Source: Escherichia phage vB_EcoM-CHD94UKE2
Direction: 5' to 3' (one strand)
Sequence record: MZ234031.1
DNA: 64,000 nt
The notes beneath the pieces are model-generated. The model was given only the letters and a program-made list of their open reading frames with translations. It did not search any database and was not told the origin of the DNA. This document shows, in pieces, positions 11,651-57,220 of the stretch. Position 1 is the stretch's first letter, and each line of letters opens with the position of its first letter. The position numbers and the translations under genes were made by a program.

Positions 11651-12173
11651 ACTATGACAGAATATACCCGTGCTGCTTTGTGAATGGTCCTGGATGCAGG
11701 ACCGTTCTTTTCGTGAATATACCCGTGCTGCTTTGTGAATGGTCCTGGATGCAGGACCGTTCTTTTCGTTACAGGTTGTTTGCATAAATGCGAAGGGTGT
11801 TATAATAAATCAACATGGAATGCTAGAAATGGTATTCCATTCACTGGTGAAACACTAGAACAATTAATTGAATGTTTGAATAATGATTATATAGAAGGAT
11901 TAACTATAACCGGAGGTGACCCTCTTTATCCTGATAACAGAGACGTGATTCATTGCATCGTTCAAACAGTAAAAAAATCTTTATCCCAATAAAAGCATTT
12001 GGTTGTGGACAGGATATAAGTTTGAAGATATTAAACAACTAGAAATGCTTAAATATGTTGATGTTATTATTGATGGAAAGTATGAGAAAAATCTTCCGAC
12101 TAAAAAGCTGTGGCGAGGATCAGATAATCAGCGACTTTGGTCAAATACCTATGGGGTGTGGAAACATGATTAA
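11647..12173 (+). pseudogene. nrdG: nrdG (anaerobic RNR activase) disrupted by 55-bp tandem duplication and +1 frameshift
   Basis: MNYDRIYPC... start at 11647; radical-SAM CLHKCEGC in second frame (ORF 11735-11992); conserved SIWLWTGYK...WRGSDNQ C-terminus in third frame to stop 12171-12173. Confidence 0.8.
11660..11769 (+). repeat. perfect 55-bp tandem duplication inside nrdG
   Basis: 11660-11714 identical to 11715-11769. Confidence 0.95.
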
Positions 12174-53201: not shown

Positions 53202-53759
53202 ATGCAGAAAACGAATCCGGGTTTGCAGAGACTATTTCAGATTCCGTCATTTACCCTATCGAACAGTGACTTGACTAGTGAAATGAAGGTCAAAATTGCT
53301 GATACTGCAAGATACTCTTTAAAACAAAACCCGAACCAGGATAAAGCAGAAGTTATCGAAAGATGTCGTATCGCTGTGTACGCAGAGTTTTTTGTGGCAG
53401 ATTGGCTAAGAGGGTATGTTAACAAAGGCCAAGAGGATGTTAATGACCCGTATACATACGCATGGGATGTACTGGCGCATCCAAAATACTGCGGGCTTCG
53501 TGTAGAAGTTAAGACACATCAAACTGACTCACGTTGGATTTCGGTAACAACAGGATGCAGCGGAGAGTATCCATATGGTTCTGGAATAAATCTAGGGCCC
53601 ATTCTAAATCATCAAGTCGCTGACTGTATAATTATATTCAACACTAAAGAAATTCATCCAGGTGTCATCCAGTACACTCCGAAGTTCATCGGTGACAGAG
53701 AAGACCTTCGTAAGGTTGTAAGAAAAAGCAACTACAATGGATGGTATCTTTCCATTTAA
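53202..53759 (+). CDS. denB: endonuclease IV DenB-like (by size and position)
   Basis: 185 aa downstream of rIIB. Confidence 0.55.
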   Translation: MQKTNPGLQRLFQIPSFTLSNSDLTSEMKVKIADTARYSLKQNPNQDKAEVIERCRIAVYAEFFVADWLRGYVNKGQEDVNDPYTYAWDVLAHPKYCGLRVEVKTHQTDSRWISVTTGCSGEYPYGSGINLGPILNHQVADCIIIFNTKEIHPGVIQYTPKFIGDREDLRKVVRKSNYNGWYLSI

Positions 53760-53775
53760 AAATTTTCACAAAACG

Positions 53776-53805
53776 GTTTACATACCACAAGGACTGTGGT
53801 ACTAT
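53776..53805 (+). promoter_or_regulatory. T4-type early promoter (GTTTAC-N18-TACTAT)
   Basis: -35 53776-53781, -10 53800-53805. Confidence 0.55.
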
Positions 53806-53832
53806 ACAACTATCAGCTACGGAGGAGTAAAA

Positions 53833-54096
53833 ATGAAATTTAAATTTTATTACGCTAAACATAAAATTACCGGTGAATTTATTGCATTTACGACTTCAAC
53901 TACAGATGAAGGAGATATTTTTACTGCAGTATTTTTATCAAAATGGGAATCAGATCAACCTTACTTATCATCACGTGAAGATCTCCAACGATTAGTTAAT
54001 GGAGAATATAATGATTCATGGTCATATTTAGTCCATGATTGTGTTAAAAAGGCAATAAAACAAAAACACTTGGAAATCGTTGAGATTGAACTATGA
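53833..54096 (+). CDS. hypothetical protein (87 aa)
   Basis: ATG 53833 after GGAGGAG. Confidence 0.45.
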   Translation: MKFKFYYAKHKITGEFIAFTTSTTDEGDIFTAVFLSKWESDQPYLSSREDLQRLVNGEYNDSWSYLVHDCVKKAIKQKHLEIVEIEL

Positions 54097-54281
54097 GTTC
54101 ATTATGGTGGTGTTTCGTTTGGTTAATTAGTATTCCATTAATTTGTTTAACATTTACTTTTGTGATGAGGTTATTATGAAAATTTTGAATTCTGTGCTTA
54201 TTGCTTGTGCGTGGTGGGTTGCGCAAGTTTCAGCAGTAGTAGTTGGTATTCACATTTATTACGAATATTTTTAAAAAAGTT

Positions 54282-54311
54282 GTTTACAAGACTGTTCTTC
54301 CGTGGTATTAT
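54282..54311 (+). promoter_or_regulatory. T4-type early promoter (GTTTAC-N18-TATTAT)
   Basis: -35 54282-54287, -10 54306-54311. Confidence 0.5.
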
Positions 54312-54339
54312 TACCCTATCAACTACGGAGGAACAGAAA

Positions 54340-54453
54340 ATGAAAAAGATTGTTAAAGCTATATGGAATGTAGTTATAATACTAATAGTTTTGAGTATAT
54401 TCCCAATCGTTTTAATGATTGATGTATTAAACGCTTACTTTGGATTTATGTGA
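54340..54453 (+). CDS. small hydrophobic peptide (37 aa)
   Basis: ATG after GGAGGAACAGAAA. Confidence 0.35.
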   Translation: MKKIVKAIWNVVIILIVLSIFPIVLMIDVLNAYFGFM

Positions 54454-54460
54454 GGAAAAT

Positions 54461-54658
54461 ATGAAGCGTAAACGCAGTGCTTTTACATTTATTGAATGGT
54501 TTTTCGATAATATTTTTCCGGCTTTATTCATTTTCATGCTGATTTTTGCTTTAGGTTCAGTTGTAGTTGGAATCTATTTGATGACAGTAGTCGGAATTGA
54601 TATTCATCAAAATGGTTTAAAATCCGTAGTTGAAACAATTTGGAACGGTGTAAAATGA
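54461..54658 (+). CDS. small membrane protein (65 aa)
   Basis: ATG 54461 after GAGGAAAAT. Confidence 0.4.
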   Translation: MKRKRSAFTFIEWFFDNIFPALFIFMLIFALGSVVVGIYLMTVVGIDIHQNGLKSVVETIWNGVK

Positions 54659-54773
54659 TGAATTTGCTGAGCGGTTGGTTTTATATTCTTATGTTTTACA
54701 TTGGCGCAAATTTTCCATATTGGATGGGATGGTCAACAACTGCGTTTGGATTTTATACTCCTTGAGGTGAATT

Positions 54774-54989
54774 ATGAAAATCTTTAAAGATGTAAAAGTT
54801 GGTGAAATTTTCTGTTTAGATAACGGTGATCAGTTAATTCGTATTTCACCTCTTAAGAGCACTAGCGAGAAACCGACAGTTAACGCTACTTTAGCAAACA
54901 ATAGTAATGAACGTTTCTGTATTGAAAATGATACTGAAACTTATACCGTAGAAGAGTTTTGGGAATTGAGCGTCGACTGCGACGATTAA
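54774..54989 (+). CDS. hypothetical protein (71 aa)
   Basis: GAGGTGAATT SD. Confidence 0.45.
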   Translation: MKIFKDVKVGEIFCLDNGDQLIRISPLKSTSEKPTVNATLANNSNERFCIENDTETYTVEEFWELSVDCDD

Positions 54990-55049
54990 TTTAATGGCCG
55001 TGTGTATTCATGCGGCCTTGGAGTAGAAAATAATTTAGAGGAAATTAAT

Positions 55050-55508
55050 ATGAAATACATGACTGTTACTGATCTGAATAATGCAGGCGCTACCGTTATT
55101 GGTACAATCAAGAACGGTGAATGGTTTTTGGGAGTTCCACATAAAGATATTTTATCTAAACCTGGATTTTACTTTTTAGTAAGTAAATTAGATGGTCGTC
55201 CATTTAGTAATCCATGTGTGTCTGCACGATTTTATGTAGGTAATCAGCGTTCTAAGCAAGGATTTAGTGCGGTTCTAAGTCATATTCGTCAACGTCGGTC
55301 TCAGCTTGCGCGTACTATTGCAAATAACAATGTTCCATACACAGTATTTTATCTGCCTGCTTCTAAGATGAAACCTCTGACTACGGGATTTGGAAAAGGT
55401 CAGTTAGCTTTGGCGTTTATTCGTAATCATCATTCTGAGTATCAAACACTTGAAGAAATGAACCGTATGTTGGCTGATAACTTTAAATTCGTTTTGCAGG
55501 CATATTAA
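55050..55508 (+). CDS. ndd: nucleoid disruption protein Ndd-like (by size and position)
   Basis: 152 aa from ATG 55050 after GAGGAAATTAAT; directly upstream of stp. Confidence 0.55.
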
Positions 55509-55588
55509 TGAGTAATTTCCACAACGAACATGTGATGCAGTTCTATCGTAATAATTTTAAAACTAAAGGCGTCTTCGGACGCCAGTGA
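55508..55588 (+). CDS. stp: Stp peptide (activator of the host PrrC anticodon nuclease)
   Basis: 26 aa [31 protein letters not shown] overlap with upstream stop. Confidence 0.7.
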
Positions 55589-55595
55589 GGAAAAT

Positions 55596-55754
55596 ATAAA
55601 TATTGCAAAATTATTAGGAGTTATTTCATTTATTTGTTGGATAGTAGCATGTGTTTTAACTATCTGTATTGATGTCAGCAGTGTGTTTTCGCAAGCTTTA
55701 GCTCAGGGTATGTGTGCATATTTAACATTTGTGTTGTTATCTACTAATGATTAA
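55596..55754 (+). CDS. small membrane protein, ac-like by position; no canonical start codon
   Basis: ATA occupies the start position after TGAGGAAAAT; hydrophobic 52 codons. Confidence 0.3.
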   Translation: MNIAKLLGVISFICWIVACVLTICIDVSSVFSQALAQGMCAYLTFVLLSTND

Positions 55755-55887
55755 GAAAATCTTGGGCTATTCATTAGCCCTTGCTATTTTATTGATAGCA
55801 TTATATTACGGAATAATGTTCGGATTAATTCAAGTCGTGCTTTTCATTTCTGATGTTATTATGGCACTACATTCACTAGTATGGTAA
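55747..55887 (+). CDS. small membrane protein (46 aa)
   Basis: ATG overlapping upstream stop; hydrophobic. Confidence 0.35.
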   Translation: MIKKILGYSLALAILLIALYYGIMFGLIQVVLFISDVIMALHSLVW

Positions 55888-55891
55888 ATTT

Positions 55892-57220
55892 ATGCAACTG
55901 AATAATCGTGATTTAAAAAGTATCATTGATAATGAAGCATTGGCTTATGCTATGTACACGGTTGAAAATCGTGCCATTCCAAATATGATTGACGGATTTA
56001 AGCCAGTTCAACGATTTGTTATTGCTCGAGCTCTTGATTTGGCACGAGGAAATAAAGATAAGTTTCACAAACTCGCTTCTATCGCAGGCGGTGTAGCGGA
56101 CCTTGGATATCATCATGGTGAAAACTCTGCGCAAGACGCAGGTGCTTTGATGGCTAACACTTGGAATAATAACTTTCCTCTGTTAGACGGTCAAGGAAAC
56201 TTTGGTTCTCGTACTGTCCAAAAGGCAGCAGCAAGTCGTTATATTTTTGCTCGTGTAAGTAAAAATTTCTATAACGTATATAAAGATACTGAATATGCTC
56301 CAGTACATCAAGATAAAGAACACATTCCGCCTGCTTTCTATTTGCCTATTATTCCTACTGTTCTTCTTAATGGCGTTTCCGGTATTGCAACTGGTTATGC
56401 AACTTACATTCTTCCTCATAGTGTTTCTTCTGTCAAGAAAGCTGTACTGCAAGCTCTTCAAGGAAAGAAAGTAACTAAACCGAAGGTAGAATTCCCAGAA
56501 TTTCGTGGTGAAGTCGTTGAAATTGATGGGCAATATGAAATTCGTGGAACATATAAGTTTACTTCACGAACTCAAATGCATATCACTGAGATTCCATATA
56601 AGTATGATCGTGAAACTTATGTGAGTAAAATCTTAGACCCGCTTGAAGATAAAGGCTTCATTACATGGGATGATGCTTGTGGTGAGCATGGCTTTGGCTT
56701 CAAAGTTAAATTCCGAAAAGAATACTCTTTGAGCGATAATGAAGAAGAACGCCATGCAAAAATTATGAAAGACTTCGGGTTGATTGAGCGTCGTTCCCAG
56801 AATATTACCGTCATTAATGAGAAAGGAAAGCTGCAAGTTTACGATAATGTAGTTGATTTAATCAAAGACTTCGTTGAAGTTCGTAAAACTTATGTCCAAA
56901 AACGAATTGATAACAAAATCAAAGAAACTGAATCAGCATTTCGTTTAGCTTTTGCCAAGGCACATTTCATTAAGAAAGTAATTTCAGGTGAAATTGTTGT
57001 ACAAGGTAAAACTCGCAAAGAACTGACCGAAGAACTTTCTAAAATTGATATGTATTCTTCTTATGTTGATAAACTAGTTGGAATGAACATTTTTCATATG
57101 ACTTCCGACGAAGCAAAGAAACTTGCTGAAGAAGCTAAAGCCAAAAAAGAAGAAAACGAATATTGGAAAACTACTGATGTAGTTACAGAATACACCAAAG
57201 ATTTAGAGGAAATCAAATGA
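55892..57220 (+). CDS. 52: DNA topoisomerase II medium subunit gp52
   Basis: 442 aa, GyrA-like N-terminus. Confidence 0.95.
   Translation: MQLNNRDLKSIIDNEALAYAMYTVENRAIPNMIDGFKPVQRFVIARALDLARGNKDKFHKLASIAGGVADLGYHHGENSAQDAGALMANTWNNNFPLLDGQGNFGSRTVQKAAASRYIFARVSKNFYNVYKDTEYAPVHQDKEHIPPAFYLPIIPTVLLNGVSGIATGYATYILPHSVSSVKKAVLQALQGKKVTKPKVEFPEFRGEVVEIDGQYEIRGTYKFTSRTQMHITEIPYKYDRETYVSKILDPLEDKGFITWDDACGEHGFGFKVKFRKEYSLSDNEEERHAKIMKDFGLIERRSQNITVINEKGKLQVYDNVVDLIKDFVEVRKTYVQKRIDNKIKETESAFRLAFAKAHFIKKVISGEIVVQGKTRKELTEELSKIDMYSSYVDKLVGMNIFHMTSDEAKKLAEEAKAKKEENEYWKTTDVVTEYTKDLEEIK

Follow-up and report, generated by a model that had tools for sequence, protein, structure and literature searches.

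Between the endonuclease gene denB and gene 52 of Escherichia phage vB_EcoM-CHD94UKE2, the reading frame that follows stp is preceded by a well-spaced ribosome-binding site and opens with ATA where a start codon should stand. Which gene is this, how did it come to carry ATA, and what would such a change do to its expression? We addressed these questions in a 64,000-nucleotide stretch of sequence record MZ234031.1, hereafter called the window, and by comparison with related phages and metagenomic contigs.

Organization of the region between denB and gene 52

Positions 53202-57220 of the window are a T-even early block in the order denB, 87-aa ORF, ndd.6, ndd.5, ndd.4, DUF7248 ORF, ndd.2, ndd.1, ndd, stp, ac, 52.1 and gene 52 (Table 1). 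An earlier note on this DNA had described mostly hydrophobic small ORFs together with Stp ahead of gene 52, and seven small hydrophobic ORFs were indeed found where it had placed them; the interval also contains two soluble proteins that it did not name, ndd.1 and Ndd. Because each of the small ORFs of the block has both a PHROG family match (E = 3e-17 to 2e-43) and a counterpart among T4 genes, they are not chance ORFs. The PF08133 family matched by the stp product is that of Stp, activator of the anticodon nuclease and inhibitor of type IC restriction. Start and stop codons overlap in several places, the ATG of ndd.6 sharing bases with the stop codon of the 87-aa ORF (ATGA) and the ATG of stp, which lies directly downstream of ndd, sharing bases with the ndd stop codon (TAATG). 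The promoter upstream of the 87-aa ORF fits the consensus TTTACW-N17-TAYWAT published for PST/T4 PeSL elements (PMC4122927).

T4 ndd.3 corresponds to the +1 frame of the 5′ part of the DUF7248 ORF and T4 ndd.2a to its 3′ part; judged from this alignment, the 65-aa ORF is the intact version of the gene annotated in T4 as ndd.3 and ndd.2a. The cluster of small peptides was presented in the earlier note as noteworthy in itself, a view that we do not share: the block is the annotated ndd-52 region of T4, most of which can be deleted. A T4 deletion extending from rIIB to part of 52.1 removes 12 genes, including ac, and leaves the phage viable (PMC9712115).

Table 1. Features of the denB to gene 52 block, in window coordinates.
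Feature	Position	Strand	Description
denB (endonuclease IV)	53202..53759	+	185 aa; upstream edge of block; endonuclease/DenB annotation in G3F7, WilhelmHis and T4
T4-type early promoter	53777..53805	+	TTTACA-17-TACTAT with TG; then CTACGGAGGA and ATG; conserved in T4
87-aa soluble ORF	53833..54096	+	phrog_2390; mostly deleted in T4
ndd.6	54093..54179	+	28 aa; GRAVY 1.76; phrog_8851, E=3e-17; 27/28 residues identical to T4 ndd.6
ndd.5	54176..54274	+	32 aa; hydrophobic, GRAVY 1.25; phrog_5011, E=4e-26; no differences from T4 ndd.5
Second T4-type early promoter	54283..54311	+	TTTACA-17-TATTAT with TG; upstream of ndd.4
ndd.4	54340..54453	+	37 aa; hydrophobic, GRAVY 1.81; phrog_3098, E=4e-21; aligns with T4 ndd.4 residues 6-42
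DUF7248 ORF (membrane protein)	54461..54658	+	65 aa; GRAVY 0.85; PF23906, E=6.5e-19, residues 6-63/65; phrog_2401
ndd.2	54655..54765	+	36 aa; aromatic-rich, moderately hydrophobic (GRAVY 0.62); phrog_4135; 35/36 residues identical to T4 ndd.2
ndd.1	54774..54989	+	71 aa; soluble, GRAVY -0.47; phrog_2183; T4 ndd.1 counterpart
ndd (nucleoid disruption protein)	55050..55508	+	152 aa; soluble; Ndd annotation in relatives; aligns with T4 Ndd
stp	55508..55588	+	26 aa; PF08133, E=4.2e-20, residues 1-26; differs from T4 Stp by L17F only
Tetraloop hairpin	55568..55583	+	GGCGUC-UUCG-GACGCC; -11.5 kcal/mol; within stp (3′ end), shortly before ac ribosome site
ac ribosome-binding region	55586..55595	+	TGAGGAAAAT; overlaps stp stop codon TGA; GAGG 5 nt from start position
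ac start codon ATA	55596..55598	+	Third position (A, 55598) is derived
ac reading frame	55596..55754	+	52 codons; GRAVY 1.51; otherwise intact; location matches the ac annotations of WilhelmHis, U115 and T4
52.1	55747..55887	+	46 aa; hydrophobic, GRAVY 1.80; Pfam DUF7396 PF24129, E=4.8e-22; aligned with T4 52.1
gene 52 (topoisomerase II medium subunit)	55892..57220	+	442 aa; one substitution relative to T4 gp52; downstream edge of block

The reading frame downstream of stp

The frame that follows stp had been proposed as a possible ac homologue, and direct alignment of its product with T4 Ac bears this out, the sole differences being A27V and a one-codon Thr insertion. The product matches phrog_2501 over residues 1-51 (E=2.7e-24), its N-terminal span is hydrophobic, and it conserves an SVF-QA-AQG motif that is also present in the type-B paralogue; Ac function requires residue G38. 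The order stp-ac-52.1/52 is common to T4, WilhelmHis, U115 and RB33. A profile search of Pfam and NCBIfam found no Ac model, and the placement rests on PHROGs and on the direct comparison with T4. Sequence, synteny and phrog_2501 membership thus identify the ORF at 55596-55754 as the orthologue of ac. In phage PP01, Ac with the Thr insertion is reported to be functional (bioRxiv 10.1101/2025.06.30.662393). This insertion is a common variant, and some relatives have a second ac paralogue. We also considered 52.1 as a paralogue of Ac and rejected it, no similarity being found between the two.

Ribosome-site spacing with ATA in place of the start codon, as originally described for this frame, was confirmed: TGAGGAAAAT is directly followed by ATA. 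The same 10-mer occurs at 54451-54460, there preceding the ATG of the DUF7248 ORF, and the ac ribosome site (anti-SD duplex of -6.5 kcal/mol) is unchanged from that of phages with an ATG-initiated ac. The Shine-Dalgarno is strong and optimally spaced, and ribosomes terminating on stp arrive 7 nt upstream of the ac start. The canonical start codon by which an expressible ac would be recognized is not found behind this site, and a scan of the ORF frame revealed no in-frame ATG, GTG or TTG, upstream or nearby, before the GTG at 55683. A read-through fusion of Stp and Ac was ruled out, as ac is offset from stp by one frame (+1). Initiation at GTG 55683, the first canonical in-frame start, would yield a 23-aa C-terminal fragment of Ac; we find such a downstream restart extremely unlikely, as no Shine-Dalgarno precedes this codon and the fragment would be devoid of the N-terminal transmembrane segment.

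Distribution and origin of the ATA allele

Searches with 45-mers centred on the ATG start codon retrieved 420 phage records in two upstream contexts (351 and 69). The ATA-centred 45-mer matched only G3F7, G3F10 and PM123, all three from one study, which brings the tally of ac start codons to ATG in 420/423 records and ATA in 3/423. With ATA placed in the second upstream context, the search gave zero matches among phage records, and no ATH allele of the ac start was detected in a scan of IMG/VR and JGI metagenomes; the ATG allele is present in five IMG/VR contigs. A conserved non-AUG (AUN) start is not what is observed here, with ATA confined to a single lineage (three records) against 420 records with ATG. 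Relatives sharing ATA with normal expression had been named in the earlier note as an observation that would speak against its reading of the codon; the relatives that carry ATA are all from the same lineage, so this objection does not arise.

Close relatives place the change precisely. Over the ~4.5 kb compared, base 55598 is the sole difference between WilhelmHis and the window, and IMG/VR contig L007 is identical to the window across the ~400-bp segment from stp to gene 52, apart from its ATG. The window and G3F10 show no differences over 40000-64000, and the first 42 kb of the window correspond to G3F10 plus one 55-bp duplication. From these alignments, we conclude that ATA is a recent, lineage-private, single G-to-A transition at 55598 from ATG. 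In PM123, which is a laboratory-bred phage, ATA is located within a window-type patch of ~1 kb (54625-55604) with CHD16UKE1-type flanks; as read from this mosaic, PM123 acquired ATA through a recombinant patch of ~1 kb. The allele is private to one lineage of wastewater isolates, most likely CHD94UKE2 with G3F7 and G3F10, these phages having been isolated from wastewater of clinics and the DSMZ (PMC8614997).

The four ATA sequences all come from one laboratory, and the genome has oddities elsewhere, namely a 55-bp perfect tandem duplication (11660-11769) and a split nrdG, features that would be compatible with a sequencing or assembly error and a real G at 55598. We nevertheless regard such an error as very unlikely. 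Base 55598 is outside any homopolymer run and, because the same base is carried not just by the window but by three assemblies that were deposited separately, one of them the recombinant PM123 with flanks from a different parent, ATA is real rather than a read error.

The ac gene is absent from the annotations of G3F7, G3F10 and PM123, gene callers having dropped it silently. The stp gene is likewise unannotated in these three records, as in several others, and in G3F7 52.1 is annotated as starting at a TTG located 5′ of the T4-type ATG. ATA is a real but ordinary strain-level mutation that leaves what is known of these genes unchanged; ac mutants of such kind have been known since the 1960s. 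The finding is chiefly of concern to annotators and to those who work with these phages. Members of the lineage are phage-therapy candidates.

Predicted effect of ATA on Ac and 52.1

The published ac product of T4 is a small membrane protein that causes infected cells to accumulate acridines; a 2025 preprint proposes that Ac blocks the AcrAB-TolC efflux pump (bioRxiv 10.1101/2025.06.30.662393). The transition at 55598 converted the ac start from ATG to ATA while leaving the ribosome site and the remaining frame unaltered. AUA is a poor partner for the initiator tRNA, and Ac should thus be made at only a small fraction of its usual level; the predicted outcome is an allele of ac that is hypomorphic or null and, by extension, a phage tolerant of acriflavine or proflavine. 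In vivo reporters in E. coli place AUA starts at 0.1-3% of AUG (bioRxiv 10.1101/063800), and knock-out, deletion and G38R point mutants of ac are all acriflavine-resistant (bioRxiv 10.1101/2025.06.30.662393). We consider it likely that the locus is a standard T-even block in which a recent ATG-to-ATA start change would give a hypomorphic or null ac, with acridine tolerance as the predicted consequence.

Translation of 52.1 would be expected to drop too. The gene lacks a ribosome site, its ATG not being preceded by a Shine-Dalgarno (anti-SD duplex of +0.9 versus -6.5 kcal/mol for ac), and this ATG shares bases with the stop codon of ac (ATGATTAA). Given these two features, translation of 52.1 is probably reduced through coupling to ac.

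AUA is not a dead start codon, and the ac allele may be leaky. An AUG-to-AUA change in T4 rIIB (Belin 1979, as cited in PMC5499595) left ~15% of translation at 25 C, with a larger loss at higher temperature and a temperature-sensitive phenotype; the same source reports that an AUA start on infA mRNA equalled AUG in vitro. Given the strong Shine-Dalgarno and the nearby termination of stp, residual Ac could be substantial. AUA behind GAGG might even supply enough Ac for wild-type or temperature-dependent acridine sensitivity, making the change near neutral, and both the intact ribosome site, with its 5-nt spacing, and the intact remainder of the ORF are consistent with this idea. We hold it to be rather unlikely, since the in vivo reporter values reach just a few percent of AUG at best, since the retention of ATG in 420 of the 423 records argues that ac does not accept AUA as a substitute, and since resistance conferred by one missense change (G38R) suggests a function that is easily lost (bioRxiv 10.1101/2025.06.30.662393). 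The lack of secondary decay in the ac ORF fits a very recent event and also continued low-level use.

If ac is indeed hypomorphic or null, as we favour, the ATA lineage probably differs from the near-identical WilhelmHis (Bas35) in its response to acridine-type compounds. The pair formed by WilhelmHis and the window, one base apart over the ~4.5 kb compared, is usable for studying Ac function, AUA initiation and 52.1 coupling.

The T4 deletion from rIIB to 52.1 is viable (PMC9712115) and T2 (MH751506) carries a nonsense codon in ac, hence ac is dispensable; because it is, nothing requires the ATA allele to be adaptive. Removal of the ac start by selection is improbable in our view, whether the agent was an acridine antiseptic or another intercalator in wastewater from hospitals, for example, or a cost of Ac on the uropathogenic host used for isolation. 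Such selection would be in line with the origin of the isolates in wastewater of clinics and the DSMZ, with the persistence of ATA through 20 breeding rounds into PM123 (both PMC8614997), with the finding that acriflavine inhibition of T4 is due to ac (PMC13250531), and with the start-codon base being the only one that differs from WilhelmHis over the ~4.5 kb compared. However, the allele arose once among ~423 records and is absent from IMG/VR and JGI metagenomes, five of the six bred phages have ATG-type sequence, and one neutral change in a dispensable gene is explanation enough. We rate as distinctly improbable the specific form in which ATA would have been selected for lowering or abolishing Ac, a conditional (temperature-dependent) allele providing escape from acridine-type intercalators, whether antiseptics or natural products, in clinical wastewater. 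Were this true, a phage would here have discarded, in nature, a gene that makes it sensitive to a chemical anti-phage defence.

Comparison with known systems

The infC and pcnB genes of E. coli have AUU starts that are conserved and regulatory. The ac allele resembles them in having a near-cognate AUN codon behind a good ribosome site, but here the codon is lineage-private and every other relative has ATG. The T4 rIIB mutant of Belin 1979, as cited in PMC5499595, has an identical transition in a phage of this kind, likewise in a non-essential early gene, although its gene and leader differ and the residual level measured there is not quantitatively transferable to ac.

With T4 ac itself (Ac, 51 aa, NP_049877), the likeness is that of an orthologue in the same slot between stp and 52.1. 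The acridine-resistant T4 ac mutants are viable loss-of-function alleles that confer acriflavine resistance (bioRxiv 10.1101/2025.06.30.662393); unlike in these classical mutants, the lesion here is in the start codon, the source is a wastewater isolate rather than laboratory selection, and the phenotype is predicted. A sequenced stock of T2 provides an independent inactivating point mutation of ac, in which codon 13 changed from TCA to TAA; it is a premature stop and not a start change, and the stp-ac junction of T2 is also different. Finally, the T4 ndd-52 cluster, whose products (ndd.2 to ndd.6, ac and 52.1) are predicted small membrane proteins, shares with the window the same genes, order, early promoters and overlapping starts and stops, whereas the 87-aa ORF and the 65-aa DUF7248 ORF, both intact here, are represented in T4 by a deletion remnant and by the frameshift-split ndd.3/ndd.2a, respectively.

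Identification of the ac homologue

The window phage is a T4-type Tequatrovirus whose plus strand corresponds to the T4 minus strand. As the earlier note had described, the ORF directly following stp carries a ribosome-site motif and ATA where a start codon is expected: TGAGGAAAAT lies at 55586-55595, followed by ATA, and the 65-aa ORF has the same 10-mer ahead of its ATG at 54461. Its proposed identity as the acridine-sensitivity gene ac was borne out, its translation matching the T4 membrane protein Ac (51 aa) except for A27V and one extra Thr codon close to the C-terminus; in T4, WilhelmHis (Bas35) and U115 the annotated ac occupies this same position. Such a Thr insertion is common, and Ac carrying it in phage PP01 was reported to be functional (bioRxiv 10.1101/2025.06.30.662393). 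The suggested surrounding cluster of small hydrophobic peptides was also confirmed, with seven such ORFs of 28-65 codons (GRAVY 0.62 to 1.81); the same interval holds two soluble proteins that had gone unmentioned, ndd.1 and Ndd. Each small ORF of the block has a full-length PHROG family match (E=3e-17 to 2e-43), and all genes of the block are either annotated in T4 or belong to an existing family.

Features of the denB-gene 52 block (window positions) and related loci in comparison stretches (L-numbers)
Feature	Position	Strand	Remark
denB	53202-53759	+	
87-aa ORF	53833-54096	+	soluble; phrog_2390; between denB and ndd.6
ndd.6	54093-54179	+	
ndd.5	54176-54274	+	
ndd.4	54340-54453	+	
65-aa ORF	54461-54658	+	Pfam DUF7248
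ndd.2	54655-54765	+	
ndd.1	54774-54989	+	soluble protein
ndd	55050-55508	+	soluble protein (Ndd)
stp	55508-55588	+	Pfam PF08133
ATA ORF (ac)	55596-55754	+	
52.1	55747-55887	+	Pfam DUF7396
gene 52	55892-57220	+	
Ac paralogue / stp-hybrid loci	L006:3893-4217; L017:397-721; L013:397-552		
Stp-like peptide ORFs	L019:1501-1578; L023:401-478; L021:383-475; L020:401-481; L022:401-481		0/5 annotated

The block also differs from the T4 reference. The DUF7248 gene is intact in the window and corresponds to two overlapping annotated ORFs in T4; since ndd.3 (26 aa) corresponds to the 5′ portion read in the +1 frame and ndd.2a (40 aa) to the 3′ portion, the T4 pair is a split form produced by a frameshift or a sequence error. 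The 87-aa gene is almost wholly deleted in T4, where the promoter survives together with eight codons (MKIAEIEL) that have a GGAG site of their own; the stop of this remnant continues to overlap the ndd.6 ATG, an arrangement that would preserve translational coupling. Two similar early-promoter modules (53777-53835 and 54283-54342), each TTTACA-N17-TAYTAT followed by CTATCARCTACGGAGGA and ATG, flank the 87-aa ORF, ndd.6 and ndd.5. They match the promoter consensus of PeSL recombination elements, which have been implicated in ndd.4/ndd.5 exchange (PMC4122927).

Origin and distribution of the ATA allele

Over window positions 40000-64000, vB_EcoM-G3F10 (MZ234038) is 100% and G3F7 99.9% identical to the window. 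In the first 42 kb, the window differs from G3F10 solely by carrying a perfect 55-bp tandem duplication (11660-11769). This duplication lies just past a homing-endonuclease gene, near the 5′ end of nrdG, the anaerobic ribonucleotide reductase activase gene, and shifts its reading frame; nrdG is split again further downstream, near 11992-12003, in both phages.

A four-way alignment places ATG in WilhelmHis and U115 and ATA in the window and G3F7. WilhelmHis and the window differ by a single base, 55598, over the ~4.5 kb compared, and an IMG/VR contig (L007) is identical to the window from stp to gene 52 (~400 bp) except for its ATG. Public records were probed with 45-mers that had the variable base at their centre, which forces each 28-base seed word to include it. 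The ATA probe matched G3F7, G3F10 and PM123 only, and the ATG probe 351 records. For a second upstream context found in many relatives, the ATG version matched 69 further records and the ATA version none. Five IMG/VR contigs carry the ATG allele; A, C or T at the equivalent position was found in no IMG/VR or JGI metagenome contig. Relatives sharing the ATA with normal expression had been named earlier as a refutation; those that share it all belong to one lineage. The allele is not a conserved non-AUG start, and the distribution points to a recent change private to that lineage.

PM123 arose in laboratory breeding as a recombinant of CHD16UKE1, G3G7, CHD94UKE2 and 101117BS1 (PMC8614997). Its sequence (L005) carries a ~1-kb window-type patch from 54625 to 55604, ATA included, between CHD16UKE1-type flanks, and therefore inherited the ATA rather than acquiring it independently; one crossover falls within ac, between 55604 and 55675. 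A base-calling error at 55598 is argued against because PM123, an independent assembly whose flanks differ, shares this base. Nothing points to selection for the allele; selection by intercalators in clinical wastewater is possible.

Predicted effect on Ac, 52.1 and phenotype

The ac Shine-Dalgarno, a GAGG placed 5 nt upstream with an anti-SD duplex of −6.5 kcal/mol, is intact. No ATG, GTG or TTG that could rescue initiation occurs in frame ahead of the GTG at 55683, which has no ribosome site before it. In E. coli reporters AUA initiates at 0.1-3% of the AUG level (bioRxiv 10.1101/063800), a T4 rIIB AUG-to-AUA mutant retained ~15% translation at 25 °C and was temperature-sensitive (Belin 1979, as cited in PMC5499595), and on one mRNA in vitro AUA was on par with AUG (PMC5499595). 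A cautious reading is that Ac would be made at a strongly reduced level, perhaps still above zero, and the allele is predicted to be a hypomorph or a null. A tetraloop hairpin (GGCGUC-UUCG-GACGCC, 55568-55583, −11.5 kcal/mol) lies within the last stp codons, directly 5′ of the ac ribosome site; it is missing from the Kagunavirus stp homologue and the T2/F1 junction.

Because 52.1 has no Shine-Dalgarno (anti-SD duplex +0.9 kcal/mol) and its ATG overlaps the ac stop (ATGATTAA), its translation is probably tied to ribosomes that complete ac and would drop along with it. T4 shows this overlap too, as does RB33 with its different ac paralogue. Gene 52, which begins 4 nt past the 52.1 stop, has a weak ribosome site (−2.8 kcal/mol).

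T4 becomes acriflavine-resistant when ac is knocked out, deleted or changed by G38R, and E. coli expressing Ac is sensitised, the authors proposing that Ac inserts in the membrane and blocks AcrAB-TolC (bioRxiv 10.1101/2025.06.30.662393); T4 acriflavine sensitivity is likewise ascribed to ac elsewhere (PMC13250531). From these phenotypes and a reduced supply of Ac, the window phage is predicted to be acridine-resistant, or partly so. The gene is dispensable, since T4 remains viable after a 3,254-bp deletion that runs from rIIB to 52.1 and takes out 12 genes, ac among them (PMC9712115). T2 MH751506 (L012:520-561) has a nonsense codon in ac (TCA to TAA at codon 13), an independent loss-of-function allele; its record annotates a 13-aa "ac".

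Ac paralogues and Stp-like peptides

Ac paralogues fall into type A (MNIAKLLGVISFICW..., T4 and the window) and type B (MKFVHGIAFFCWFFLC...), which are 43% identical and share an SVF-QA-AQG motif. RB33 has type B only, tandem copies with B ahead of A occur in 101117BS1 and JLBYU22, and T2 and F1 have the tail of a type-B gene joined to the stp 3′ end, giving a hybrid Stp C-terminus.

A tblastn search with Stp matched 796 phage records, Salmonella phages accounting for 128, with the weakest E-values near 1. Siphoviruses of several groups unrelated to T4 encode Stp-like peptides, mostly unannotated, that are 25-30 aa long and have the core MSN(F/W)HNEH(V/I)MQ(F/W)YR; examples are found in Kagunavirus RP180 and, with one substitution, PDP21P8. 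More divergent forms, one being MSNWHNEHIMQWYRRRIK..., are found in Drexlerviridae (Bas11, Veterinaerplatzvirus) and a Swiduovirus. A text search for literature connecting Stp with these groups found none.

Comparison with known ac alleles

Loss-of-function mutants of ac have been known since the 1960s. The sole new item here is a start-codon allele of the gene, unremarked in public records; gene callers skipped ac in those that carry it. Because a single base separates them over the ~4.5 kb compared, the window phage and WilhelmHis make a handy pair in which to test what Ac does and how AUA initiates.
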